This document shows, in pieces, positions 1 to 36,291 of a stretch of 36,291 bases of DNA. Position 1 is the first letter of the stretch. Each line of letters begins with the position of its first letter. Source of the DNA: a virus; UHGV virus genome UHGV-0200858, one strand, 5' to 3'. The position numbers and the translations under genes are program-made. The notes beneath the pieces were generated by a model, which ran no database searches, was not told where the DNA came from, and saw nothing but the letters and a program-made list of their open reading frames with translations.

Positions 1-30
1 GTACCCATCAACACACGAGAGGATACAACG

Positions 31-3041: not shown

Positions 3042-4226
3042 TTAGGCAGCGTCTAAAGGGCTTAAATCAAGTTCTAGGTCTTCCGGTTCCAAATCAGCTA
3101 ACTGTGCATTCATCCACTTAGCTAAATCTTCATCGGTTACGACAAAATCCGGTTTTTCTTCCCATTCATTAAGATACATCGGACGATCTGGATTTGCTGC
3201 GATATATTCATTAATGAAGTTTAATGCTTTCTTGAGAGTTTTAATCGGGCGTGTTTCCGTCCATCCATCCGGTACATCATGTTTTGAGGCAGTCTTACCC
3301 TTAACATGAATCTTTAACCCTTTCTCTAAGTCGATTGCTTGCCATCCCTTTTCAAACAGATGATTGAATATCAATTCATGTTTGTATGTGGATAATTTGG
3401 CTTGTTGTTGCATTCTCTTTTTAGAGTTGGAGGCGAAACCGATTTTAATAAATTCATCTCCTAATTTCTGAATATAGAGATAAGTCGGACGTGTCTTGTC
3501 AATTCTTCTTAGATTATATTCACCTGTTTCTAATGAACGTTGGTTTGAAAGGCAATCTGGACAAATCAGGATTCCACGGTCGCAAGGTTCACGGGTAGTT
3601 AAATCCCAATCCCCATGATGCGGACAATTACAGCGCAAGAGTGTCTCTCTTACTCCCTTCTCTTCTGACAACCAACAAACGAAGGTGTATCCGAATTCTT
3701 TACACAATTCCTTAATCTGTGCTTCTCTCTTAGCTCTCAATTCAGTGAGCGTATTACATCCGTTTCTACGAGCCAGATTGCTCTCTTTGGTGCAGCATGA
3801 ACAGTTTAAATTTCTACGGAATGCCAGATTAAGAGGGATAGTGAATTCTTCGTTGTGATTCAAGCAGAGAAATTTTGCTTTGGTTCCTTTGACGTGATTG
3901 TATTCACCATCCCAACCTAAAAACTGTTTCCCTTCCTGTTTCCCTCGTTCGGTTAGCTGGATTTTATATCCTTCCTCATTCCTTTTAAGGCTTCCCCCAT
4001 TGATTTGATTTAACTGTTTCAGTGCATGAATGCTGGAAAGTCCGGTAGGTTGATATGACACCTGAAAACGGGCTTCTACTCCTGATACATACGGTAAAAC
4101 AAAACCATCGAAGGTTAATCCGTGTTTCTCACACTGTTTAATGATTCTGGCTTGCACTTCTTCCGGTGTCTTCTGGTTTGGGTGAGTCTTAACAAAAACA
4201 ATCTCGTTTGCAAATGCTAGTTTCAT
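3042..4226 (-). CDS. GIY-YIG-like (T5orf172-type) domain protein with N-terminal Cys/His zinc-ribbon-like repeats; putative homing-endonuclease-like nuclease
   Basis: C-terminal half contains YLYIQKLGDEFIKIGFASNSKKR...E motif resembling GIY-YIG/T5orf172 fold; upstream CxxC/CxC/HH clusters (LNCSCC, RCNCPHHG, CPDC); paralogous to the 4381..4950 product. Confidence 0.55.
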   Translation of the reverse strand: MKLAFANEIVFVKTHPNQKTPEEVQARIIKQCEKHGLTFDGFVLPYVSGVEARFQVSYQPTGLSSIHALKQLNQINGGSLKRNEEGYKIQLTERGKQEGKQFLGWDGEYNHVKGTKAKFLCLNHNEEFTIPLNLAFRRNLNCSCCTKESNLARRNGCNTLTELRAKREAQIKELCKEFGYTFVCWLSEEKGVRETLLRCNCPHHGDWDLTTREPCDRGILICPDCLSNQRSLETGEYNLRRIDKTRPTYLYIQKLGDEFIKIGFASNSKKRMQQQAKLSTYKHELIFNHLFEKGWQAIDLEKGLKIHVKGKTASKHDVPDGWTETRPIKTLKKALNFINEYIAANPDRPMYLNEWEEKPDFVVTDEDLAKWMNAQLADLEPEDLELDLSPLDAA

Positions 4227-4380: not shown

Positions 4381-4950
4381 ATGATTCCAGTAATGGCTAA
4401 AGATATTGTTTTTACTCCTAAATCATCCCGTGCTGTAACTCCACCAGCATTAGAACAACGCATTCTTACTCACATCAAAGATAATGACTTACCGTTAGTC
4501 TTTCATGGCTTTCTGGGTGAGTTTAAAGGGCTTCACACGAGAATTGCTCTTACATGTACTCGCTGCGGTGATAGAGCCGACAAATCAGCTACTAACCTGC
4601 TTAATGAAGGCAAACGCTGTGTATGTTTCAAGAGTGATTATTTTCAATATAAAGCGGGTGTACCATATCTCTATGTGATGCAATCCGGCGATATTGGTAA
4701 ATTTGGTGTAACAAAATCGATTATCAAACGTAGGGTTAATCTGGGCTTACGTAATCCCGGTCATAACTTTGATATTGTCTATGCTCGTGAAATGCCATCA
4801 ATGAAACATGCGCTAGCCACTGAGCGAACAATAAAGAGAATGTTGGATGTGGGTATAGGCGGGATTGAATACGGCAAAACTGAAACATTCCACTACTGCA
4901 ATAAATCACTAAACAATATAAAGAATATTGCAAGTGTGGAGTGGAACTAA
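4381..4950 (+). CDS. GIY-YIG-like (T5orf172-type) domain protein with zinc ribbon (189 aa)
   Basis: CTRCG...CVC Cys cluster followed by YLYVMQSGDIGKFGVTKS...RRVNL...E motif; stop overlaps the start of the downstream helicase gene (TAATG). Confidence 0.55.
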   Translation: MIPVMAKDIVFTPKSSRAVTPPALEQRILTHIKDNDLPLVFHGFLGEFKGLHTRIALTCTRCGDRADKSATNLLNEGKRCVCFKSDYFQYKAGVPYLYVMQSGDIGKFGVTKSIIKRRVNLGLRNPGHNFDIVYAREMPSMKHALATERTIKRMLDVGIGGIEYGKTETFHYCNKSLNNIKNIASVEWN

Positions 4951-6440
4951 TGCAAGATATTAACATTCATTTTCAAGATTACAGTTTCGTTAAGGTTGAA
5001 TGCTCTCCTTCTATCGGAATGGAATTAAGAGATTATTTCTCGTTTGAGGTTGAAGGGGCTAGATTTAGCCCCCGCTACAAATATTCCGGCTGGGATGGAA
5101 AGATAAGACTGTTTACGCATGAGAACACCTTACCAATCGGATTATTGAAAACATTGGGTATCTTCGCTAAAAACATGGGCTATAGCGTATGGGTAGACCC
5201 CAGATTGCTTGAGAAGGAAGATGTAACCAAAGAATCAATTGATTCATGGATTGACTCTTTAGAAGTGTATTCCGGTAGCAATAAAATCAATCCTTACTGG
5301 TATCAAAGAGAGGCAGTATTTCAGGGTATCCATAATCGCCGTAGAATGCTGGTTCTTCCTACCAGTGCCGGAAAGTCATTGATTGCTTGTATGCTGTCTC
5401 GTTGGTACTTAGAGAACTACACCGGAAAGATTCTAATCATTGTCCCGACTACATCGCTGGTGGTTCAAATGAGGGATGATTTTGTCGATTATAGGCTATT
5501 CCCTTATGAAGCAATCCATACAATGATGAGTGGTAGCGGGAAACATCCGGGAGACAGGTTAATCACTGTTTCAACATGGCAATCAGCTTGCAAGATGCCT
5601 CCTGAATGGTTCCGACAATATGGAATGTTGATAGTTGATGAATCGCATCGTGCCAGCGCAAAGAATATCACCAATATCATCAACGGAATGAATCATTGTC
5701 AGTTTAAAATCGGTATGACTGGTTCCCCGAAAGAATCAAAGTGCCATTTAATGCAATATGTCGGGTTGTTCGGTGATATTCAGAAGATAGTAGCAATCAA
5801 GCAATTGATGGATGACGGACAAGTTACCCAGCTTAAAATTAATGCTCTCTTCCTTAAGTACAAAGATGAAGAATGTAAAGCAATGCGGGGCAAAGATTAT
5901 CAGGAAGAGATTAAATTCATCAATGCTCATAAGGTAAGGAATAAACTGGCTTGTAATTTGGCCTTAAAACTCGCCAGGAAGCAAGAAAACGTATTTTTGA
6001 TGTTCCGGTACTCTAAGCATGGAAAAATGCTTTATAATGCGTTACAGCGCGTTTACGATAAGGTTTATTACGTTTCCAGTGAGATTACCACCGCCGAACG
6101 CGATGCCTTAAAGAAAATGGCTGAAAATGAGAAAGGATTGATTGTAGTTGCCTCCTATGGTGTTTTCTCTACTGGCGTTTCAATTAAGAATCTTCATCAT
6201 GTCATTTTCGGTCATCCAGTGAAGGAATCAACCATTGTCCGGCAATCAATAGGACGTGCTCTTAGGAAACATGGTAGTAAAGCAATTGCGTATGTGTGGG
6301 ATTTGATAGATGTGATTTGTTCGAAAGACAAGAAAGGAAAATATACACGCAAGAATTATGCTTTAACTCATGGCCTCCAGAGAATCAATACTTACATATC
6401 AGATCGCTTCGAATATGTAACGAAAACAATCGAGATTTAA
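4941..6440 (+). CDS. uvsW: SF2 DExH-box helicase, UvsW-like
   Basis: Walker A LPTSAGKS, DExH box IVDESH, motifs ILIIVPTT, VYYVSSE, IVVASYGVFSTG, QSIGRALRKHGSK; overall layout and several motifs recall T4 UvsW (from memory, not searched). Track start is GTG; likely ATG start at about 4950 overlapping upstream stop. Confidence 0.8.
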   Translation: MELMQDINIHFQDYSFVKVECSPSIGMELRDYFSFEVEGARFSPRYKYSGWDGKIRLFTHENTLPIGLLKTLGIFAKNMGYSVWVDPRLLEKEDVTKESIDSWIDSLEVYSGSNKINPYWYQREAVFQGIHNRRRMLVLPTSAGKSLIACMLSRWYLENYTGKILIIVPTTSLVVQMRDDFVDYRLFPYEAIHTMMSGSGKHPGDRLITVSTWQSACKMPPEWFRQYGMLIVDESHRASAKNITNIINGMNHCQFKIGMTGSPKESKCHLMQYVGLFGDIQKIVAIKQLMDDGQVTQLKINALFLKYKDEECKAMRGKDYQEEIKFINAHKVRNKLACNLALKLARKQENVFLMFRYSKHGKMLYNALQRVYDKVYYVSSEITTAERDALKKMAENEKGLIVVASYGVFSTGVSIKNLHHVIFGHPVKESTIVRQSIGRALRKHGSKAIAYVWDLIDVICSKDKKGKYTRKNYALTHGLQRINTYISDRFEYVTKTIEI

Positions 6441-12545: not shown

Positions 12546-13120
12546 TATTCACCCCCGAATCTATAAACTTGTTCATAGTCAATGTCTGAAACAGGAATGG
12601 TCATCCAGATACCATCTTCTTCAACGAGGCCATAACCGGAATAATGAGGAACTACGGAATAATAATTACGGTTTCCTAATTTGTGGGCTGTGACCAGTAA
12701 GTCGCCGTCCTGTAAATCATCAGTGACTAATTTGAAATGTTTCTTTATTGGTTGAAGGATGTTTGAATATCCGCTTAATTCTTTGCAGATTTTCAAGCCT
12801 TCTTCTTTAGTTGAATATTTTTTATAAAGAGAATTATATAGGTCAGTACCAGCGAGAATATCGATGATCTTACATGCAATGAGATTGCAATCATTCTCGC
12901 CTTGAACGAACTCCTGACCTATTAAAGAATTGATGTAATCAGTGATAAGCCTAGTTTTTAGCATGTTGAATACCTCCATGCTGTTATTTACTAGGCTTAG
13001 GGAGAAGGGATTATTTCTTCGATGAATGCCACTTGCTTTCCGATTGCCAGCGACCCGCCCTTGAGAAGAATAGATCGTTCTCGTTTCCAACATAGGATCG
13101 GTGGATACCATCGGAAGCAT
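12545..13120 (-). CDS. tail assembly protein, NlpC/P60-family (lambda gpK-like)
   Basis: QGENDCNLIACKI contains Cys in an NlpC/P60-like context with downstream His; sits between L-like and J-like genes. Track ORF overlaps upstream gene; probable true start at internal Met about 12966. Confidence 0.55.
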   Translation of the reverse strand: MLPMVSTDPMLETRTIYSSQGRVAGNRKASGIHRRNNPFSLSLVNNSMEVFNMLKTRLITDYINSLIGQEFVQGENDCNLIACKIIDILAGTDLYNSLYKKYSTKEEGLKICKELSGYSNILQPIKKHFKLVTDDLQDGDLLVTAHKLGNRNYYSVVPHYSGYGLVEEDGIWMTIPVSDIDYEQVYRFGGE

Positions 13121-13664
13121 GACTACGAGCGTTTTTATCTAGAACTTCCCAGATACTATTAAGCTGAAATTCCGATTCGTTTTTACACTCATCATCTTCA
13201 TGTTCGATGTTAATACCGATGGAATCGACTACCCCACGGAAAACAGGGTAAGTTGTTTCAACCTTGCCCGTGTTGGGGTTAAGGAAAACCATCTCGATTT
13301 TTACATCAGATTTATCGAATTGCTTGTTACGAATGAGAGTTACATACTCTTCACGGACGTTAGAAACAGTTACGTTAATCCCGTTGTTGTTGATCTCCTT
13401 CTCTTCGGTATTCGATGAGATTTGAAGAAAATCACCCGTTGCGAGATACGTAAATCCGTTATAGTCCAAATCGAAATACCCATCTGTAAGCCGTAGAACG
13501 TCCCCTGACGCTGTTATCACTTCGATAATGTGAAACATCGATCCAGTGGAAAAAAGCTGCGGTAGCGTTAATCTAGACACGTTCTGACCTGTCTGGTCGT
13601 TGTAGACCTCGATGAAGTCAAGATTAGTGCATAGTTTGCTGAATGATTCCTGAATAGTTGCCAT
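13011..13664 (-). CDS. minor tail protein (lambda gpL-like position)
   Basis: Position between distal tail gene and K-like gene; 217 aa; C-terminal Cys/His region; call by synteny only. Confidence 0.45.
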   Translation of the reverse strand: MATIQESFSKLCTNLDFIEVYNDQTGQNVSRLTLPQLFSTGSMFHIIEVITASGDVLRLTDGYFDLDYNGFTYLATGDFLQISSNTEEKEINNNGINVTVSNVREEYVTLIRNKQFDKSDVKIEMVFLNPNTGKVETTYPVFRGVVDSIGINIEHEDDECKNESEFQLNSIWEVLDKNARSHASDGIHRSYVGNENDLFFSRAGRWQSESKWHSSKK

Positions 13665-14224
13665 TATACATTCTCCACTAATTCAAATTTCATCTTGCCG
13701 ATTTGGGCGATCTTCCAATCGATATTTTCAGTTTTGAGAACAAATTCACCTTCTACGTTCTGATACTTGATCACCTCACCCGCCAGGACGTTCTGCCGCA
13801 AGTTAGGGAAGAGTTTCATTTCACCACCTGATTTCACGTCTTCGGTGATCGTGTAGATTTTCTTGTGGTTCTCAAACTGGATGATAGTTCCTGCTTTCAG
13901 TGTTCCGGTGAAGTTGGAGAGTCTTACCTTACGCCCACCGCGAGCAGTACCAGTAGCAGACGTAACCATCTGGCGTACATCACCTGTATATTTTGAAAAG
14001 TAAGACAGTGGCACACTAAAAGGACGACCAAAAAGGTGACGTGCTACAAATTCTTTTACTTCGTTAATATCCTGAGCCATGAAATTAGCTGTAAATTCTG
14101 CTTCATAAAAATGAATGCCAGTAAAGCGACGCTGGAACTTACCGGAGATAGATTGCGCCTTGAAGAAAGGTTGTTTTGATTTAAGAGTAAAATCTGTGAT
14201 TTTAATATTCTTGGATTTGAACAT
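13664..14224 (-). CDS. minor/distal tail protein (lambda gpM-like position)
   Basis: First gene after tape measure; start overlaps next gene stop (ATGA-type coupling); synteny-based. Confidence 0.45.
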   Translation of the reverse strand: MFKSKNIKITDFTLKSKQPFFKAQSISGKFQRRFTGIHFYEAEFTANFMAQDINEVKEFVARHLFGRPFSVPLSYFSKYTGDVRQMVTSATGTARGGRKVRLSNFTGTLKAGTIIQFENHKKIYTITEDVKSGGEMKLFPNLRQNVLAGEVIKYQNVEGEFVLKTENIDWKIAQIGKMKFELVENV

Positions 14225-27364: not shown

Positions 27365-29269
27365 TTAGAACGATGTTACCCAGCTACGGCCTCTATTTGG
27401 GCGTCTGGCGATGTTTTTACGTTGTGGTCGTGTGATTGGCTTATTTTCTTCGATTTGCTCGTCAGATTGCGATTTAGGAGCTTTTACGGGTTCTTCGACA
27501 ACACGGTTTAAGCTGTCTTTCATTGCGATGAGTTTATCCCATGACATTTTTGAAAGGACGTAGCGAGAAGCCGCTGTAGCATACACGGCGCAGTCGAGCG
27601 CCTCGTTCCTAACGCCTGGGTTCTTTACCCATCTCACGCCAGTAGTAGTACGCTTGACAGATTCACTTAAAAGCTGATCGAGATAATCATCAGGAACGGT
27701 GTCTGATATTTCTAAGCCAATATGAGGATTATCTTTCAGGTTCCTAGCCAACATTTCACGAAATGCAGTTTTACCCACATTAACACCCAACATAAGCAAT
27801 TCATGACCACCTGTGCGGGTAGGTTTAACCGGAATGATCGGAGCGTTACCAGCAGAACTACCTTTGATAGCGTGTAAGTTCTTCCACTTGCCGCAAATAC
27901 GGTATCCAGCTTGAGTGAATCGACCGTTCGATGTATCAAGGAAGCTGGCGAGCATAGGAACACGATCACCCGATACAGTAGTAAATCTGGTTTTATGGAA
28001 GTTGATTAATCTATCCCATACAGGGGATTCATATCGTTCACAGTTATGATCGTAAAAGCTGCGGTGATCCAGAATATAAATCTTATCCTTTGCCACGCCC
28101 ATGATTGTAGTTTCTGCGCGATCTAATTGCTGGTCAGTACCCGCACACAAGAAAATCACGTCATCAGGGATATTCTCGATAGAAACATCTGTTTTGAGTT
28201 GTTCCAGTTCATTTGCTTCTACTGCCGTGTCCTGATCGTCGTATACCTTGCCTAACACGGTGTTATAAAATGATTGTAAATCAAAGGATTGCCACGCATG
28301 ACTAAAATCAACCACACAAGCGCGGATCGTGCTGAAAGGTGAATACAGACGGCTGATCCAGAATCCTGCTACTTCACTTTCACGGGTTGCTCTCCACTCG
28401 CCTTGTGCTACTGCCCTGATCCGCTCTCCTTCTGTCCATGCGTTCTTACAGTGGGGGCAAATATAACGAGCGGTATCAGGATCGGGTAAGTTCTTACCAT
28501 CGATGTTACGCCATTCAAATTGAACGTTTTCCCACTCGATCACCTGGTGTCTACCGCAATGAGGACACGGAACAAAAAACATACGCATATCGCTTGATAA
28601 CCATTGCTGGTTAATGCTTCCCAGCTTACTGGTCGGGGTACTGGATACGACTAATCGACCTTCATCGCCAAAGGTAGTTAAACGGTTAGCAGCCAGTGCC
28701 ACCGGATCACCTTCTTCTGAGGCTGTAGCAGCATCGATTTCGTCAAGCAATCCAACCTTTGCGGTCTTACCACGTAGGGTTGATGGACTGGTAAGCGATA
28801 CCATGTACAGGAAGTGATTCGTTTTTAGCTGTAGCTGGTTATTGTTGTTAACCGCATTGCGATCATTCTTGTCTGTAACCACGTCTTTTAATGCATCACA
28901 TGCTTCGATAGACGGTCGGATCTTACCAGCGAGATATTGAGACATTTCTTTAGCGGTTGATTGTCCGATAATCATATTGCATGGATCGTTAGCCATCTGG
29001 TTAAACAGGATGCCGTTCAGGATGGTAGTCTTTCCGATCTGCGCACTGGTCATCAGAACATACTTTTTCTTGTTCTCAAGGAAAGGAGCATCAATCATGC
29101 CTTTCTGGAATGACAGCAATTTAACTTTATCCCCAGCTTGAGGACCATCTACCAGCACCATATTCGCTTCGCACCATTCCGATGGAAGGAGTTTAGGCGG
29201 TGGCGTAATATATTTTGCGGCATTTCTAAGAATTCTTTTTAGTTTTGTTTTGTTCGAAATTAGTTTCAT
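27365..29269 (-). CDS. terL: terminase large subunit (634 aa)
   Basis: Size, position upstream of portal, N-terminal ATPase-like region (Walker A-like MTSAQIGKT, Walker B-like VGLLDEID) and C-terminal nuclease-like region with conserved acidic residues. Confidence 0.8.
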
Positions 29270-29356
29270 TCAAATACCCTCATTACGAAATATGAAGGTA
29301 TTTATTAAATTGTTGATATTTTGATAAATATGGGTATTAAGATTTAAGGGGGGTGT

Positions 29357-29959
29357 ATGCTAATTAACCAACAACAAAGGGATGAATTAGATTTAGCCTT
29401 ATCTTGTACCGATCATGAATATCGTTTGCCAGTCAAGCATAAGCATTTAAAAACCGACTACACAACATCCGGTTTTAGCCGTGAGGAAGCGAAAGAGATT
29501 TTAATAGAGTTTTACCGCGATAATGGTTATACAGACGTTCACAACTTCTTTAAGAAGCATAGAACATCACATACAGAGTTTCGGAGAGTCCGAGATTGGT
29601 TTGATTTTGATATCAAGCGGTTTTACAGGATTGATGACGGTCCGGTCTATCGGTTGCAATGGAAGCCGATCCGAGAAGTGTTGAAACAGAAGAGATTGAA
29701 TCACGCTGTTACACGCTATCGTAACGAGGCATTCAAGAAAGGCTATGGTGATACAAGGGAATTGTTTGTAGAACTCGCTAACGTGCGTTATAGCCACTAT
29801 TACAACGATCCTAAAGGATTCTTCGAAGTGCTTCGCAAGGTTGATATTAGTCGGGGTACATACTATTCACGGTTGAAGAAGTACGGGATTAAGGCAGAGT
29901 TCTTCATGACCGTTGACGACTCACCGATGTTCAAGATAAAATGTAAGTCCTCTAAATAA
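29357..29959 (+). CDS. hypothetical protein with C-terminal small HTH-like module (200 aa)
   Basis: Divergent from terminase; C-terminus GFFEVLRKVDISRGTYYSRLKKYGIKAEFF resembles the two small paralogs at 29962..30219 and 33429..33623. Confidence 0.45.
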   Translation: MLINQQQRDELDLALSCTDHEYRLPVKHKHLKTDYTTSGFSREEAKEILIEFYRDNGYTDVHNFFKKHRTSHTEFRRVRDWFDFDIKRFYRIDDGPVYRLQWKPIREVLKQKRLNHAVTRYRNEAFKKGYGDTRELFVELANVRYSHYYNDPKGFFEVLRKVDISRGTYYSRLKKYGIKAEFFMTVDDSPMFKIKCKSSK

Positions 29960-29961
29960 TA

Positions 29962-30219
29962 TTGAGAATTCACTATTGTTTGGAGGAAACTACTATGACT
30001 ACTAAAGCTACTCGCGGACGTCCTTGCCGTTTTGATCGTGAACAACTGGCAGCGATTGTAAAAGCGTACTATCAAGCACCGAAAGGTAAAGCCGAAAAAG
30101 AACAAGTATTGAGCGAACACGGTATTTCAATCGCTCAATTCTACAAATCACTCCATAAAGTTGATTTGAAATTCTTTGTTCAGGTTGACGGTGAAATGGT
30201 AGAAGCAACAGGAATTTGA
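29962..30219 (+). CDS. small HTH-like DNA-binding protein (paralog family)
   Basis: RGRPCRFDREQLAAIVKAYY ... GISIAQFYKSLHKV pattern; likely true start at internal ATG about 29995 preceded by GGAGGA; followed by terminator. Confidence 0.45.
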   Translation: MRIHYCLEETTMTTKATRGRPCRFDREQLAAIVKAYYQAPKGKAEKEQVLSEHGISIAQFYKSLHKVDLKFFVQVDGEMVEATGI

Positions 30220-30226
30220 TTCTCTA

Positions 30227-30254
30227 GGCCAATCCTTCGGGGTTGGCTTTTTTT
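30227..30254 (+). terminator. rho-independent terminator (approx)
   Basis: GCCAATCC UUCG GGGUUGGC hairpin with UUCG tetraloop followed by a run of 7 T. Confidence 0.65.
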
Positions 30255-30264
30255 ATACCTACAG

Positions 30265-30293
30265 ATACAAAAAAGCCCCTGAAATTCAGGGGC
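30265..30293 (-). terminator. rho-independent terminator for the minus-strand Rha-like gene (approx)
   Basis: GCCCCTGAA ATT CAGGGGC hairpin; on minus strand followed by TTTTTTG. Confidence 0.55.
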
Positions 30294-30301
30294 AAAAATT
30301 A

Positions 30302-31219
30302 TTACAGTCCGAAGTGTTCCAGTGATCCAGCATTCTGACGAATCAGCAAAGCAGTATTATTGACGATTGCTCGTGAGTTGTTAGGTTGTGGCAATTTCAA
30401 AGTTGCTGCCTTTTCTTCTTCAAGCAATCCGAGTTTTACGAGATGCGGGATAGCATCAGCAGTGAACTCGATCTGACCGTGTGCTGACATACGAGCGAAC
30501 ATATAGCCAGGAGGAAGCAGATCATAACCGTTAGGCTTACCAGAAGCATCCAGACGACGCTCAAGAACACCAGCAGCACATAACCCTTTCAGAATCATTT
30601 GTACCTTCACAGAGCCTCGTTTTTCGCCTAATAAGCGGGTTAAGCTGTGTGTGTCGATAGCTTTACGTACATGCAATTCAACCAGTTGATTCTTTTCCTG
30701 AATCAGTTGTTCGTTTGCAGCTTCCAGTTCCATTGCCTCGCGAATCCAATCGAGCTTAGTCATGTTTGCGTATGGGTTGACTTGCTGAGAACGCAGTTTT
30801 TCATTTTCTTCTTTCAGTCGTTTCCATTCCTGAATAACAACCATTCGACGCTTAACATCGTAACCAGTGACAAGAGTCAGAGTCATTTCTTCGTCTAAGT
30901 GATATACTGGTTCTTTAACAGCATATCCTAAGTTATTGATTCTCTCGACAAATTCAGTTTTGAGCTGATCGATAATACCTAAAGATTCGTACATTTCGCG
31001 AATATCGCGCATTACATTGCTGTGCTTCTTATCGGTGAATTCCGCGATCTGACGGGAAGACATGGTAAGCGGTTTGGTGTTATCAACAACCAGAGACACA
31101 GAAGCAGTTTTAGTAGTCATAGTTTTAACAGTATTCATAGTAAAAATTCCCCTTAAACGGTTTTGCGATTGATACTCCATTTTGATTAACTGTCCACACG
31201 CCAACGGCGCGCGGAACAA
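30302..31219 (-). CDS. rha: Rha-family phage regulatory protein (antirepressor-like)
   Basis: LTMSSRQIAEFTDKKHSNVMRDIREM matches the conserved N-terminal Rha motif; C-terminal region with coiled coil. Track start likely over-extended; probable start at Met about 31138 preceded by AAGGGG. Confidence 0.65.
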   Translation of the reverse strand: MFRAPLACGQLIKMEYQSQNRLRGIFTMNTVKTMTTKTASVSLVVDNTKPLTMSSRQIAEFTDKKHSNVMRDIREMYESLGIIDQLKTEFVERINNLGYAVKEPVYHLDEEMTLTLVTGYDVKRRMVVIQEWKRLKEENEKLRSQQVNPYANMTKLDWIREAMELEAANEQLIQEKNQLVELHVRKAIDTHSLTRLLGEKRGSVKVQMILKGLCAAGVLERRLDASGKPNGYDLLPPGYMFARMSAHGQIEFTADAIPHLVKLGLLEEEKAATLKLPQPNNSRAIVNNTALLIRQNAGSLEHFGL

Positions 31220-31241
31220 TTTTATTTATAATAGAAATTTA

Positions 31242-31574
31242 TTACCAATCGATTTCTACCTGATCTTCTTCATAATAAGGAATCGCATATTCATAACGCC
31301 AGTTTTCGATGATTTCACGTTCTTCATTAGTAAGAAGGTGATTGCTAACTGGAGTCGCATTGTGATTACCAGCTTCGAATTGCTCGCGAACTTCCAGCAT
31401 TGCATGAATACCAGTTAATGACATCAGATCAAACGGAACATGCATACTACGGGAGATAGTTTCACGGGATACGCCCCAATCATTTTCTACATGGCTAGGG
31501 CTTACAGAAACGGTTTTGCCGGAGATTTTAACAGTCCAGTCATACAGGGATTTAGTGATGGTAAATTCTTTCAT
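31242..31574 (-). CDS. hypothetical protein (110 aa)
   Basis: ORF with AGAGGA SD; no recognisable motif. Confidence 0.45.
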   Translation of the reverse strand: MKEFTITKSLYDWTVKISGKTVSVSPSHVENDWGVSRETISRSMHVPFDLMSLTGIHAMLEVREQFEAGNHNATPVSNHLLTNEEREIIENWRYEYAIPYYEEDQVEIDW

Positions 31575-31649
31575 GTTACATCCTCTTTACAAATCTAGGT
31601 CAAATAGGTTCAAAGTTGTCAAGTGCGATAATCATAAAAAAGTCAGAAA

Positions 31650-31685
31650 TATTTGTCAATACCCCTTGACAAGTTGCCAAAGGGT
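31650..31685. promoter_or_regulatory. inverted-repeat operator candidate TTGTCAA-N7-TTGACAA with additional TTGACC copy (approx)
   Basis: ATATTTGTCAATACCCCTTGACAAGTTGCCAAAGGGTTGACC in the gap between two minus-strand early genes. Confidence 0.35.
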
Positions 31686-31693
31686 TGACCTCA

Positions 31694-32203
31694 TTAGAGC
31701 ATTTCTAAGCCATCGTGATAGCCGTAGAAGCCATTCTGAGAAGAGAAACAGATAGGAGCATAATCATCATCTTCGTCGTCTTCATCTTCGTCATAATCGT
31801 TTTTAGGGGCTTCCTGAGCGTCTTCTTTACCGTAGTTAAACATGGCTTCGTCAATCTCTTGAAGGGTTACGAAACTACCCAGATCTTGATCACCGGAACG
31901 GACTTCGAACGGCAGGTCATCACGAACAATAATTGCTGGTAGATTCTGGTATTTCGCACGATCTTGATCGGTGAAGCAGTTAACTACGATAGTAGGTTTC
32001 TTGTTCTTGCAAAACGAATACCAAGCACTAGAAAAGCTGGATTCATCGGAATCAAAAAGGATGTTATAACCACGTTCAACGAAGATCTTCATTAAACGGT
32101 CATTGTGAAAGCTATCTGCATCCAGACCTAACAGGATGAAAGGAGTAGTAGTCTTGTTCTTGTACATAGTTGGTAATCCTCTAAAAGAAAGTGAATCAAA
32201 CAA
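31694..32203 (-). CDS. early protein with acidic C-terminal tail (169 aa)
   Basis: First gene of the leftward unit leaving the control region; C-terminal DYDEDEDDEDDDY acidic run; N-terminal alpha/beta-like region without recognisable catalytic motif. Confidence 0.45.
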   Translation of the reverse strand: MFDSLSFRGLPTMYKNKTTTPFILLGLDADSFHNDRLMKIFVERGYNILFDSDESSFSSAWYSFCKNKKPTIVVNCFTDQDRAKYQNLPAIIVRDDLPFEVRSGDQDLGSFVTLQEIDEAMFNYGKEDAQEAPKNDYDEDEDDEDDDYAPICFSSQNGFYGYHDGLEML

Positions 32204-32753
32204 ATTACACTAGTATTTATAACGAGAATTTTTTATCTATTTGGAAGTGATTGGTATTCAGTCTGGCTAAAGCCATCCTTCATGTACTAGAACAAGAATT
32301 ATACAAAACAAATTTTCTTCTATAATAATATTATATAATAGTTCTTCGTTTTGATTAAATGATCATCAAACCAGTATTGACGCTCTCCAGAGCGTCTGCG
32401 AAGCAATCTATTACCTTCTAGTATTATCAAAGTGATTCTAACTACCTTTCTAGTAACCAGTTAGTAACCACCTAGTATTAAATCCCTTTCTAAGAAAATC
32501 CTTTCAAAAGTGAGTGAACGCCGTAGGCGTGAACGTGAGCGAAGCGAACTATCCAATCCCTTTCGAATCCTGCTTGCAGGTCTTAGAAGGTGTTGGTGGG
32601 CGCTACGCGCACGGCTACGCCGTATTCTTTTTGTGAGATCTTTCTTGAACGCTAGTGAGAGAAAGCGAACAAAAAGGAGAACGTTAGTTCGAGTTTTATA
32701 TTCTATGGTCTGTGTGGTCAAATGCTTTTGCAAATCATACACTTACGTGATTA

Positions 32754-32878
32754 AAGTGTAGGGTTAGTGTAGGTGTGTAGGTTTCATAGTGTAGGTTTGG
32801 ACATGTTCTAGTGTAGGTTTACTGGCTAGTGTAGTGTAGGCCAATCCCTTTCATGTGTAGGTTTGTAGTGTAGGTTTT
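32754..32878 (+). repeat. direct-repeat (iteron-like) array, about 8 copies of GTGTAGG(T)TT
   Basis: Read directly: AGTGTAGGGTT, AGTGTAGGTG, TGTGTAGGTTT, AGTGTAGGTTT, AGTGTAGGTTT, AGTGTAGTGTAGG, TGTGTAGGTTT, AGTGTAGGTTT, all same orientation, spacing 10-20 bp, in non-coding AT-rich region. Confidence 0.8.
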
Positions 32879-32896
32879 TCATCAAAAATTTTGATA
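32878..32896. promoter_or_regulatory. near-palindromic site ATCAAAAATTTTGAT (operator candidate, copy 1)
   Basis: CATCAAAAATTTTGATAAAAA immediately after the iteron array; dyad symmetric. Confidence 0.4.
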
Positions 32897-32959
32897 AAAA
32901 ATTCTTGTATATTATTTAACCAAAAAATCATCAAAAAATAGCTGTAAGTTAATGATTTA

Positions 32960-32993
32960 AAAGGAATTGTCAAAAGGTCACCGTGCTATAATA
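32960..32993 (+). promoter_or_regulatory. extended -10 promoter candidate (TGcTATAAT) (approx)
   Basis: GGAATTGTCAAAAGGTCACCGTGCTATAATAGG: TGnTATAAT extended -10 with upstream TTGTCA-like element. Confidence 0.45.
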
Positions 32994-33029
32994 GGTTATA
33001 AAGGTTGATAATCCTGATCAGCCGTTTTC

Positions 33030-33046
33030 ACACAAAAATTTTGATA
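33030..33046. promoter_or_regulatory. near-palindromic site CAAAAATTTTGATAG (operator candidate, copy 2)
   Basis: Second copy of the AAAAATTTTGATA dyad about 150 bp from copy 1 and about 27 bp upstream of a consensus -35. Confidence 0.4.
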
Positions 33047-33072
33047 GTCATTTCTCGCCTAGATCATGGGTA

Positions 33073-33101
33073 TTGACAATAGTCAAGAACTATTTTATAC
33101 T
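33073..33101 (+). promoter_or_regulatory. near-consensus sigma70 promoter (TTGACA-17-TATACT) driving the rightward early unit
   Basis: TTGACAATAGTCAAGAACTATTTTATACT; the -35 lies within the inverted repeat TTGAC-N4-GTCAA. Confidence 0.6.
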
Positions 33102-33428
33102 TTTTCTCACTGGTGGGGGTTGAAATTTTCAAAACAATCCCCATATAGATGATAGGCAAGAATTTCTCTTGTATAAATACATGCATGAAAATGATTGTTC
33201 ACTTCTGAAATCTCCAGATTCACTGTTAATTCATACAGCACTGGTTAGATATACAGTGCTTTTTCGGTTGAATAATGTACGAATTGATTAATTATTAATC
33301 TTCTCTTTAGCAATTCGTGCTCCCACTGATCGGATATACAGTAGTTTTACAGGGTTTTTCGAAAATCATTTTATAAATAGATATGTCGAGAGCGAAAAGC
33401 TCTTTTTAAAGTTTTCATTATTCCACAA

Positions 33429-33623
33429 TTGAGGATTCTACTTATGGCTAGACCTGTTAAATTTACCCGTGAAATGATTGTTGATATTGCTAAACGCTTT
33501 TATGGTGACACTGAACGAGGCGGTGAGAACTTCTTTAAGAAGGAAGGAATTGATAGAAGCGGATTCTACAAACTAATGAAGAAATACGAGATTCAAGTAA
33601 AGATTAACGTTCAAGTTTGTTAA
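33429..33623 (+). CDS. small HTH-like DNA-binding protein (64 aa), paralog of 29962..30219
   Basis: ARPVKFTREMIVDIAKRFY ... GIDRSGFYKLMKKYEIQV pattern shared with the other two small modules; AGGA SD. Confidence 0.45.
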   Translation: MRILLMARPVKFTREMIVDIAKRFYGDTERGGENFFKKEGIDRSGFYKLMKKYEIQVKINVQVC

Positions 33624-33661
33624 TCACCTTTCACTGAGAATTATATGATGGCTTTAAAAAT

Positions 33662-33696
33662 AAAAAAGCCTCCCTGTTGGCGCAAGGAGGCTTTTA
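33662..33696 (+). terminator. hairpin terminator/attenuator immediately upstream of the 33742 gene (approx)
   Basis: GCCTCC CTGTTGGCGCAA GGAGGC followed by TTTT; A-run on the 5' side. Confidence 0.4.
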
Positions 33697-33741
33697 GCAT
33701 GAAACATTAAAAACAAACACAGAGCATTCAGGAGTATTTAT

Positions 33742-34773
33742 ATGAAAAATTCTAAGCGCATCACCTTCAACCTGTTCATCAAAGCAAACGGCAAACTGAA
33801 CATTACTGTCATGGAAGGTAAAGCAAGCAAACAAGACAAATCCTTTGAAGTAGTATCCGGTAAGACTCTGACCGAAATGCGTCAGAATGCTGGCATCAAA
33901 GACGGTGCTGAATGGCAGATCACTAACCGTTTCGACAAACGTCACGTTAAACCTACACTGGTAGAAGGTGAATCCGTTTATTGCTTCGCTCGTGCTGTTA
34001 AAGCTGATGAGACTTACTATCTCGCTGTTGTTAAAACTGCTTCCGGCTTCCGTGCTGTAATGCACCACAAGAGCAAGCGTAACGAATACGGTGTAGAGAC
34101 CCAGGAAGTTGCAAAACGCTTCCGTACTGTTGCTACTGAATCCACTGTAAAAGATGTTTCTGGTACTGTTAACACCGCTAAAGGTGGTTCTTTCTACAAC
34201 CACGCATTACAGGTTACTTCCTCCTTCTTCTGCAAAAAAGAAGCTGTGAAAGAAGTTGCTCCGGTAGTAGTTGAAGAAGTTAAAGAAGAAGTTGCAGTGG
34301 TTGAATCTTCCGAAGTTGAAGCACTGAAAGCACGAATCGCTGAACTGGAAGCTGAAATGACAGCAGTTAAAGCAGAAAACGCATCTCTGAAAGCAGAACT
34401 GGCAGCACAGGAAACTACTTTCGAAGTAGCAGCGGTTGAAGTTGAAGCAGTTGAAGAAAAATCCATTGATGAAGAACTGGAAGAACTCCTTAACTATCGC
34501 TGGGGTAACGGTGAAGTAGAAGAAGAACAGGAAAACGAGAAAGAAGCTGATCCGGTAGTAGTTCCGGTTGAAGTTGAAGCAGAATCCGCACCAGTTACTA
34601 ACTTTGAATCCCTGCGCAATAACTTTATGGCTAAATTCAAAACCACTTGGGAAGATACCGAAGAAGAACAAGAAGAGATTGAAGTAAACGAAGACGAGAT
34701 CCGCGAAGCACAGATGGCACTGCATGACGCTATCTATGACACCAACTACAGCGCCTACGCATACGCAGCTTAA
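33742..34773 (+). CDS. highly acidic early protein with N-terminal globular domain and C-terminal E/V/A-rich coiled coil (343 aa)
   Basis: Strong SD (AGGAG), codon usage strongly biased to major E. coli-type codons (CTG, AAA, GAA, GTT, CGT), C-terminal half dominated by E/A/V repeats (EVEAVEEK, VVPVEVEAE); candidate host-takeover/anti-defence protein. Confidence 0.55.
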   Translation: MKNSKRITFNLFIKANGKLNITVMEGKASKQDKSFEVVSGKTLTEMRQNAGIKDGAEWQITNRFDKRHVKPTLVEGESVYCFARAVKADETYYLAVVKTASGFRAVMHHKSKRNEYGVETQEVAKRFRTVATESTVKDVSGTVNTAKGGSFYNHALQVTSSFFCKKEAVKEVAPVVVEEVKEEVAVVESSEVEALKARIAELEAEMTAVKAENASLKAELAAQETTFEVAAVEVEAVEEKSIDEELEELLNYRWGNGEVEEEQENEKEADPVVVPVEVEAESAPVTNFESLRNNFMAKFKTTWEDTEEEQEEIEVNEDEIREAQMALHDAIYDTNYSAYAYAA

Positions 34774-34788
34774 TAGAGGGGTGAATCT

Positions 34789-35031
34789 ATGATGAATCAA
34801 AACAAAGAATTTCTGGGTAATCTGATGTTAGAAATTACCAAAATTAAAGAAAGAATGGTAGCGATGGAATCAGAGATTAAAACTCTTAAAGCTGATAATA
34901 AGGCGTTGAGAAAGTCCTTAAAGCTGATTGATGAGACTAATGCGGTTATGATGGATCATGTATTCCCTGAGTGGCGAAATGAAACTAAACCTACACAACA
35001 CAAGAAACCTACACTTCGGATTGTTGCATAA
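34789..35031 (+). CDS. small coiled-coil protein (80 aa)
   Basis: GGGGTGA SD; heptad-like region EITKIKERMVAMESEIKTLKADNKALRKSLKLIDE; followed by hairpin. Confidence 0.45.
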   Translation: MMNQNKEFLGNLMLEITKIKERMVAMESEIKTLKADNKALRKSLKLIDETNAVMMDHVFPEWRNETKPTQHKKPTLRIVA

Positions 35032-35060
35032 AAAAAGGGAGTCCCATTTAAGAGACTCCC
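35029..35060. terminator. hairpin terminator between convergent units (approx)
   Basis: A-run, GGGAGTC CCATTTAAGA GACTCCC; T-run on the minus strand, so strongest as a minus-strand terminator. Confidence 0.45.
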
Positions 35061-35133
35061 TATAGTTAGGTTAGGTTTGCACAACAAAGATGAGGTTATA
35101 ATGAACATAATGCTACATTATTCTTTAAAGCCA

Positions 35134-35159
35134 GAAAAATAACCGCCCCGAAGGGCGGG
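35134..35159 (-). terminator. rho-independent terminator, minus strand (approx)
   Basis: CCGCCC UUCG GGGCGG with UUCG tetraloop on minus strand followed by U-run (A-run on plus strand). Confidence 0.5.
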
Positions 35160-35317
35160 AGGATTAATACTCAATCTATACTTGTTATGTTTTTATGTTG
35201 TATAGATCACTGACTATGAAAACACTGTACTGGAGTTGTGTTTTATGGCTTTTAATCGGGAATCCTCAAAGAAGATCCCCTGTTAATAACCATAAGGAGA
35301 AAAGGCAGATTACACTA

Positions 35318-35647
35318 TTATTTAGTACGCTTGAAAATGTGATTCAAAACGACAAACAGACAGTAAAACCAAAATGCGATTAACAACACATGAATTGATG
35401 AAGTCGGTTTAAAATCAAATAAGAACATCGCTAGACAATCCACTGTAAAGGAAATTACTTCGACAATCGCAAACAAACTAGCAATTCCACAAAACGCGCC
35501 TAAAAACAATTCCCAACGTTCTTTTTCATTGGTAGACAGTTTGAAAGCAGAAACGATAGAAAGAACAACGATGATCACGAGATAAGTTAAGAAAGTAGCC
35601 ATTAGTATTTTGCCTCTAGTTAGACAAACATCCTCTAAAAAATTCAA
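35318..35647 (-). CDS. small multi-pass membrane protein (109 aa)
   Basis: Three hydrophobic segments (LMATFLTYLVIIVVLSIVSAF, LFLGAFCGIASLFAIVEVISF, VLLIAFWFYCLFVVL); lies in a markedly AT-rich segment. Confidence 0.4.
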   Translation of the reverse strand: MNFLEDVCLTRGKILMATFLTYLVIIVVLSIVSAFKLSTNEKERWELFLGAFCGIASLFAIVEVISFTVDCLAMFLFDFKPTSSIHVLLIAFWFYCLFVVLNHIFKRTK

Positions 35648-35730
35648 ATCAGAAAAGTTAAGCGGGGGAGGTTATCCCCCGTAGGCGTTGCCCATCAACA
35701 CCCTTCACACATATATTTAGTATCTATTTT

Positions 35731-36291
35731 TTAGGACACATCGAATTCATCATCTTCTTCGGATTCTTCTTGTTCTTCCGGTTCATCCATTAACGGTAAT
35801 TCTTCTTCGTCCTCGTCTTCACCTAATTCTGCATTTTCGAACATATCCCCTACTTCATTTAAACGACGCTCGATGATCTCCCTTAGCTTATTCTTCAACG
35901 TTTTCTGATCGGTTGCAGATTCGAGAATTTCTAAAGCATCGATTGTGGCGATCTGCAAAATAGTCTGCTTCACTTTCCCGCAGTATTCCGCTAGTTCCTG
36001 TTCTACATACCCTACTGGAATAAGTTGGTTCATCGCTTCCTGGTTCTCGCGTTCGGCAGCATCTGCTAAAGCACGTTCACGGCGTAATTTCTCGACATCG
36101 ATTTGTTCCTTAATAGAAGTTTCTTTGAGCGGGTTAATGATATTTTTCAAGACCCATTCTGTACCCTCTTTTGCTGGTACGCGTCGTGTATTGGTATTAA
36201 ATGGCATTCCTCGTTGCTGCCATTTCTTAGCTGCGTTGATTGTATAGCCGTATAAGCGGGAAATTTCTGTAAGGGTTAATTCTTCTTTCAT
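35731..36291 (-). CDS. Nu1-like winged-HTH DNA-binding protein, putative terminase small subunit (186 aa)
   Basis: N-terminal LTLTEISRLYGYTINAAKKWQQRGMP resembles the lambda Nu1 HTH (QNWQEQGMP), followed by EKLRRE coiled coil and acidic C-terminus; the window ends exactly at the start codon. Confidence 0.5.
   Translation of the reverse strand: MKEELTLTEISRLYGYTINAAKKWQQRGMPFNTNTRRVPAKEGTEWVLKNIINPLKETSIKEQIDVEKLRRERALADAAERENQEAMNQLIPVGYVEQELAEYCGKVKQTILQIATIDALEILESATDQKTLKNKLREIIERRLNEVGDMFENAELGEDEDEEELPLMDEPEEQEESEEDDEFDVS

Follow-up and report, generated by a model that had tools for sequence, protein, structure and literature searches.

The predicted terS gene and its location at the prophage end

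The window analyzed in this study, that is, the whole 36,291-nt stretch of the virus genome UHGV-0200858, carries at its right edge an open reading frame for a predicted small terminase subunit (terS), together with the following features relevant to its interpretation:

35731..36291, minus strand: terS, complete coding sequence (186 aa), predicted small terminase subunit of the Nu1 family
35663..35681, minus strand: terminator-like GC-rich hairpin, CGGGGGA-TAACC-TCCCCCG (consensus match only)
29270..35730, both strands: 6461-bp region between terS and terL (from the list of open reading frames)
32513..32880, plus strand: GC island (about 32513-32740) followed by eight GTGTAGG iterons (32756-32874), from sequence counts
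27365..29269, minus strand: terL, gpA-type large terminase subunit of 634 aa (Pfam GpA_ATPase, E 4e-56, and GpA_nuclease, E 7e-46; PHROG 15, E 3e-140)
1274-2968: large serine recombinase (integrase)
1..25, plus strand: phage arm of the attachment site, from the junctions with the split ycdX gene in NZ_CP069522.1

The terS reading frame runs from position 36291 to position 35731; the window's three final bases form its ATG, and positions 35731-35733 its stop codon. The distance between this stop and the start of terL, which is encoded on the same strand, amounts to 6461 bp, in agreement with the coordinates and the spacing of ~6.5 kb given in the initial annotation. The same annotation had pointed out that the gene starts exactly at the window edge. 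This is indeed the case, and it results from trimming, since the window is an E. coli prophage cut at gene boundaries; the gene itself is complete.

The last 3 kb of the window match 64 complete E. coli chromosomes, the best of them with 96.8% identity (NZ_CP069522.1), and in this chromosome we inspected the sequence beyond the window, as had been proposed, and found a ribosome-binding site (GGAGGA) and 365 bp of phage DNA past the terS ATG. Here, the element is inserted inside ycdX, the 3' part of which lies directly left of window position 1, and the 5' part of which starts ~365 bp beyond the terS ATG, where attR is located. The ~365 bp of the prophage right end that are absent from the window thus contain the ribosome-binding site and the upstream region of terS. 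Window position 1 falls inside the right half of attP, and the reconstructed attP is spanned by an inverted repeat (GTTGA..GTTTGGGTTT / AAACCCATCAAC) around the crossover. The corresponding regions are 23330-23370 of L026 and 11980-12025 of L027. In the excised circle, the upstream region of terS joins the window start, so that terS becomes the gene nearest to attP on one flank, with the serine recombinase 1.3 kb away from attP on the other.

Within the same att boundaries as terS, the element carries terL, portal, capsid, tail and lysis genes, with terL being the first gene of a 22-kb structural and lysis block. No obvious cI-type repressor or replication initiator was found in the element. 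A UvsW-type helicase is encoded at 4941-6440 and two proteins with a CapR-homology domain at 3042-4226 and 4381-4950, and an UvsY-like mediator is present in the RefSeq annotation of one relative (L027, 19218-19385). A megablast search of the 9-kb right end against deposited phages gave no match.

The terminator-like hairpin lies ~50 nt past the terS stop codon and is followed by a moderately T-rich tail, and an equivalent hairpin was detected by consensus scan in the 96.8%-identical prophage. On this basis, terS may constitute a short transcription unit of its own. Comparison with its relatives yielded dN/dS values of 0.05-0.22, at dS values of up to 2.8, and, as estimated from these substitution rates, terS is under strong purifying selection. 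Its homologues are labelled 'hypothetical' in most of the listed E. coli and Salmonella records, and some homologues with 71-74% identity are already named 'terminase small subunit' in NCBI or UniRef.

Family membership and predicted structure

To place TerS within the known small terminases, we used profile comparisons in addition to pairwise alignments. The alignment to Nu1/TerS families suggested by the initial annotation returned similarity over most of the protein, residues 1-168 of TerS aligning to positions 9-190 of the 199 positions of the PHROG 57 profile (E 6.8e-16), a group that includes lambda Nu1 itself (E 1.3e-76). An exhaustive search among 1.8 billion representatives recovered 53 relatives, 33 of which were aligned to build a profile (A1). 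The top five PDB matches of this profile (E 4e-12 to 7e-8) are the lambda Nu1 structures 6hn7_B (E 4.2e-12) and 1j9i_A (DNA-binding domain, E 5.5e-11), followed by 7lw0, 7lwr and 7lxs, which are likewise small-subunit terminase entries. At the pairwise level, BLASTP aligned only 27 residues of the two proteins (residues 4-30 of TerS to residues 2-28 of Nu1; 30% identity, pairwise E 1e-4). These profile matches, together with the BLASTP alignment, uphold the earlier proposal of a Nu1-type winged helix-turn-helix (HTH) at the N-terminus.

The Pfam family Phage_Nu1 (PF07471) is reached by TerS with 13.7 bits over residues 63-94 only, below the gathering threshold of 30 bits, and by 11 of the 33 homologues (E <= 0.01) with a best E-value of 9e-18. 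The link of TerS to this family is therefore transitive, as its homologues, and not TerS itself, reach the model. As far as profile similarity goes, TerS is a genuine but distant relative of lambda Nu1. The initial annotation had additionally relied on a shared EKLRRE region. This string is in fact present in both proteins, but the profile alignment pairs the segment IDVEKLRRERALADAAE of TerS with a different segment of lambda Nu1 (IEYERHRLTRAQADAQE), so that the identical hexapeptide is probably a coincidence. Among all window open reading frames of at least 50 aa, only terS is matched by the A1 profile (E 1.6e-61; next best 0.18), and a search of NCBIfam provided no family for terS or its neighbours.

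The AlphaFold2 model of TerS (mean pLDDT 87.5) predicts the following arrangement:

about residues 1-38: winged HTH with two short strands
residues 39-85: long helix of 47 residues
residues 92-156: helical bundle
residues 157-186: disordered acidic tail

A Foldseek search with this model retrieved 7lw0_A and 6hn7_B as top matches, both deposited as small-terminase chains, with weak E-values (0.17-0.39), and MerR, BldC and an excisionase were retrieved as well. In comparison to the 60-100 aa of excisionases, TerS is considerably longer, its 186 aa comprising ~120 further structured residues and the acidic tail.

Gene order and the region between terS and terL

The arrangement of terS and terL was compared across the fetched loci encoding a TerS relative, in each of which terL was located by tblastn. 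In a sister clade represented by 80 IMG/VR loci and Rouxiella sp. T17, a homologue with 29-39% identity to TerS ends within -88 to +32 bp of where a gpA-type terL starts. Three IMG/VR loci depart from this, the aligned part of their terL starting 124-390 bp downstream. In the clade to which the window belongs (~30 loci), terS and terL invariably share a strand, with terS lying 4.9-7.6 kb upstream. Among the members of this clade are close relatives from E. coli and Salmonella, one relative with 57% identity and the P0071-P0075 group with 37-45% identity in TerS, and the separation of the two genes is kept in relatives with terS 37-57% and terL 48-79% identical. In a 52%-identical relative integrated at a different chromosomal site, terS again adjoins the prophage-host junction. 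A rough neighbour-joining tree groups the split loci into one clade, sister to the clade with adjacent genes. (The genome scan with the A5 alignment: two loci only.) In one distant member of the split clade (L112, 2880-4914), homologues of two mid-tail genes (window 13011-14224) are found directly upstream of terS on the same strand, which implies a further rearrangement or a defective element.

The possibility raised by the initial annotation that the packaging genes are split across the control region is supported by full-length homology of TerS to terL-adjacent proteins (80 loci), by its being the sole Nu1-family open reading frame of the window and by the clade-wide conservation of the split. 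A canonical terS directly upstream of terL, which had been named as the observation that would speak against it, was not found: the 87-bp spacer upstream of terL abuts a divergent gene with no terS-family match, and the two genes adjoining terL are divergently transcribed and have no match to a terminase family in Pfam, PHROG or NCBIfam. Adjacency of terS and terL, which is typical of the family and not strictly defining for it, is replaced in the window by 6461 bp with genes on both strands.

The intervening region (29270..35730) comprises a membrane-protein open reading frame, three plus-strand genes, a 1.2-kb non-coding stretch with the iterons, three minus-strand genes including a Rha-type regulator (Pfam and PHROG match) and two plus-strand HTH-like genes divergent from terL. 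It is mosaic, with close relatives sharing some genes and swapping others, and in distant members of the split clade the genes between terS and terL are unrelated. Among the loci compared, it is the architecture (terS, ~5-7 kb of early/regulatory genes, terL) that is conserved, and not its content. Three plus-strand genes (29357-29959, 29962-30219 and 33429-33623) appear as weakly related copies of one small domain with the motif ...F.RE....I...FY....FF.K..I....FY...KKY.I..., present in two copies in the 200-aa protein. Four of the five repeat pairings gave pairwise E-values between 1e-6 and 6e-3, and the pairing of the 64-aa with the 85-aa protein reached only E 0.83. These genes, which flank the control region on both sides, have no match in Pfam, PHROGs or NCBIfam.

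As potential packaging sites, the initial annotation had put forward the GC island and the iteron array. The heptamer GTGTAGG occurs 14 times in the window, compared to two expected occurrences, and eight of these copies are clustered in 32756-32874; two more, in inverted orientation, lie at 34990-35014 inside the gene for the 80-aa protein described below. The iteron type (GTGTAGG or GGGGCAA) perfectly co-occurs with the presence or absence of two neighbouring, unannotated genes, 33742-34773 (a 343-aa coiled-coil/acidic protein) and 34789-35031 (the 80-aa protein): relatives carry either GTGTAGG and both genes, or GGGGCAA (in other cases the ACGGGGA or GATTCCA types) and neither of them. The N-terminal domain of TerS is 95-98% identical across both iteron types, and both types of terL (see below) are found with the same iterons. 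Furthermore, the similarity to the aligned GGGGCAA-type relatives (L003, L009, L010, L022, L023 and L025) stops at position 32513, which places the GC island in the same exchangeable cassette. As this cassette swaps with its two neighbouring genes and shows no covariation with the terminase genes, the GC island and the iteron array were discarded as packaging site; the iteron cassette is probably an origin/initiator or immunity module. An Rfam search of 29200-36291 gave nothing near the gathering score, so that the GC island does not correspond to a known RNA.

The terL product encoded at 27365..29269 is the presumed partner of TerS. Among the window and the relatives L003-L025, terL exists in two types which are ~55% identical over the core and near-identical in the first 16 and last ~35 residues. 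Both types pair with the same TerS tail, and their distribution follows neither terS nor the iteron type nor the neighbouring genes. In lambda, the N-terminus of gpA binds Nu1 and its C-terminus binds the prohead. The conserved ends of terL are compatible with a contact between TerS and TerL, and they could equally mark recombination junctions.

Candidate packaging site, probable function and comparison with known systems

The sequence just upstream of terS, outside the window and between attP and terS, consists of a non-coding block of ~270 bp. Relatives in which the synonymous sites of terS have reached saturation (dS 0.8-1.6) retain 79-85% identity in this block, and its similarity is still detectable at 37% TerS identity (z 7.9). 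An inverted repeat, GGTCGCTACGCGAC, at -138 to -145 of terS is invariant in every close relative and in the 57%-identical one; a look-alike with three mismatches at 32598 is probably due to chance. In the sister clade, the motif GTTTCGGCACC is located upstream of terS in 11 of 71 loci, which accounts for 11 of its only 23 occurrences in 2.4 Mb. As RNAalifold returned a weak energy and a covariation penalty for the block, with no RNA covariation, its conservation is not explained by RNA structure. These alignments indicate a cis element that travels with terS whether or not terL follows.

In lambda, cos lies directly upstream of Nu1, and by analogy we tentatively consider the ~270-bp block as a candidate packaging site (cos), an assignment to which we give somewhat less than even odds. 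The block could instead be a promoter/operator region. Local alignment of the block to lambda cos and to the central non-coding region gave scores no better than those of shuffled sequences, and the GC profiles of the sister-clade sequences preceding terS followed no consistent pattern. The idea of reading cos ends from the ends of IMG/VR contigs was dropped, as provirus contigs are trimmed at gene boundaries.

Taken together, these results suggest, with a probability of roughly 85%, that the reading frame at 35731..36291 codes for the phage's own TerS, distantly related to lambda Nu1 within the same family and displaced from terL. The adjacency to terL in the sister clade, the conserved split, the uniqueness of the reading frame in the element, purifying selection and public annotation all argue for this assignment over a stand-alone regulator. 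By analogy with Nu1, the N-terminal winged HTH would bind a recognition site on concatemeric phage DNA and the central helices would oligomerise, while the C-terminal part, including the acidic tail, would recruit the gpA-type TerL encoded 6.5 kb downstream, which would then cut the DNA and drive it into proheads. The recognition site would most likely be the ~270-bp block upstream of terS, mirroring the cos-Nu1 layout of lambda. What is unusual is the gene order only, with terS forming an apparently separate short unit at the prophage end by attP.

A first alternative accepts the protein as TerS and places its packaging site elsewhere, i.e. upstream of terL, inside terS or in the central non-coding region, with the ~270-bp block acting as the terS promoter/operator. 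We regard this as rather unlikely, if clearly worth weighing. The block does have a regulatory appearance, with its invariant hexamer CTTGAC and with an inverted repeat, TGCG-N21-CGCA, that is conserved near the ribosome-binding site; similarity to lambda cos is missing, and many small terminases recognise sites located inside the gene that encodes them, as in pac phages such as P22 and SPP1. Moreover, three exact copies of the 12-mer CCAATCCCTTTC were counted, compared to 0.16 expected: two in the central region (32553-32564 and 32841-32852) and an inverted one at 113 bp before the terS ATG (L026, 23093-23104). However, several relatives with near-identical terS, e.g. L022, lack this 12-mer ahead of terS, the central GC island and iterons swap independently of terS and terL, as described above, and the short (87-bp) spacer that precedes terL is rich in AT and devoid of evident repeats. 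To our knowledge, every gpA-type terminase studied to date is a cos enzyme whose cosB adjoins the small-subunit gene (established for lambda and its relatives), which likewise counts against a site elsewhere.

The initial annotation had also considered a regulator with a Nu1 fold. In its full form, this reading takes the protein as a former terminase subunit with a MerR-like winged helix that has no role in packaging and serves either as excisionase/recombination directionality factor for the serine recombinase or as transcription factor of the control region. The position of terS, ~365 bp from attP and at the other end of the prophage from the serine recombinase, would suit such a factor, as would its appearance as a separate unit with its own terminator-like hairpin; the fold class is common to excisionases, with the RdfS excisionase retrieved by Foldseek at a probability of 0.51, and both lambda Nu1 and the homologue of Escherichia phage DCP80 also touch PHROG 66, 'excisionase and transcriptional regulator'. 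Nevertheless, we judge this reading to be very improbable. The homology to terL-adjacent proteins spans the whole 150-170 residues, well beyond the HTH, and the protein, with its oligomerisation-type helical region and acidic tail, is unlike excisionases in size. A phage with a regulator at this place would, in addition, keep a gpA-type TerL without any detectable small subunit, and the DCP80 homologue follows lysis genes within 27.5 kb that contain no annotated integrase and no other annotated terS. As a primary role, regulation is therefore unsupported, given the full-length homology and the lack of another TerS; the protein may have a second role.

That terS belongs to a neighbouring satellite or prophage remnant, similar to the terS-like Rpp proteins of phage-inducible chromosomal islands (PICI), is hardly credible: the A1 profile does match the N-terminal domain of RppC (6hlk_A, E 2.4e-7) and the gene occupies the extreme edge of the predicted provirus, yet the RppC match is limited to the HTH, terS lies inside both halves of the split ycdX and thus within the integrated element, every one of the ~30 clade loci with downstream flank combines it with the same structural module, and in the 52%-identical relative it is found by the prophage-host junction at another insertion site.

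Returning to the assignment as TerS, the cis site and terS might together form an autonomous module at attP that is transcribed apart from the late operon and recombines separately from terL, and TerS might moonlight at attP, for instance on excision by the serine recombinase, a combination we consider improbable. Should the upstream block be cos, the start of the virion chromosome would lie by the integration site, and the early/immunity region, rather than the head genes, would be packaged first.

Overall, the analysis assigns a function to a protein labelled 'hypothetical' in the majority of listed E. coli and Salmonella records, and it indicates that annotation rules seeking terS only beside terL will miss it in this prophage clade. 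It further provides a concrete ~270-bp candidate packaging site and removes the iteron array and GC island from consideration. The clades with adjacent and displaced terS, whose partners are homologous, lend themselves to asking whether the neighbourhood of terS and terL affects expression stoichiometry or keeps the specificities of recognition and motor linked.

Among known systems, lambda Nu1 (PF07471, PHROG 57; 1J9I and 6HN7 chain B) is the reference for the protein encoded here. Both share the same PHROG over the full length, a homologous MerR-like winged HTH, a similar size (186 aa for TerS, 181 aa for Nu1) and the predicted domain order of HTH, putative helical self-association region and C-terminal tail, and each has a gpA-type TerL as partner in its genome. 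In addition, a constrained non-coding block is located directly upstream of terS in the window phage, where lambda has cos. In contrast to Nu1, the C-terminus of the TerS described here is a long acidic tail predicted to be disordered, its gene is separated from terL by 6461 bp, whereas lambda nu1 (191-736) overlaps A (711-2636), and the upstream block does not resemble lambda cos in sequence.

The sister clade ('YGYDES' group, uncultivated or prophage) resembles the window element in its TerS, which is 29-39% identical over the whole length, in its gpA-type TerL (35-43% identical) and in the presence of a homologue of the window's 164-aa protein after terL. The two clades differ in gene order, terS abutting or overlapping terL in the former and being 4.9-7.6 kb apart from it in the latter.

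The only TerS homologue among deposited phage genomes is encoded by Escherichia phage DCP80 (PQ671644, XNX25193.1; 32.6% identity over 77%; PHROG 57, E 9e-20), whose terL is also the closest in the phage collection (43.7%). As in the window, the terS homologue is not adjacent to terL; it is found after the endolysin gene at the far end of the structural/lysis block, 22 kb downstream of terL, which differs from the position described here. The DCP80 record (PQ671644.1; L140) is 141 kb long and classified as T4-like Gaprivervirus. Within positions 1-27500, the first ~26 kb hold the terS homologue, the endolysin gene, and a gpA-type terL and a portal gene homologous to those of the window; the downstream genes are annotated as hypothetical, one of them near the size of the window's 1248-aa tail protein, and T4-type early genes such as motA come after the first ~26 kb. 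The record represents either a genuine hybrid or sequences joined in assembly.

RppC (6HLK), a protein of an E. coli PICI that redirects packaging (PMC6739421), likewise has a Nu1-like HTH at its N-terminus and a gene remote from any terL. RppC differs from TerS in that only the HTH matches (residues 5-49), and satellites with Rpp proteins are devoid of terL and structural genes, of which the element in the window carries the full set.

With respect to gene order, the literature searches provided nothing specific on the ycdX-inserted prophage, on a described separation of terS and terL or on this clade. Moderate separations of terS and terL do occur in other phages, and the arrangement is unusual rather than unprecedented. 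A terS-terL cassette is what most phages have, according to the genome paper of Felix O1 (PMC3185647). In comparison to these systems, the new aspect is the presence of a distant Nu1-family member in a conserved, atypical gene order, the function itself being ordinary.
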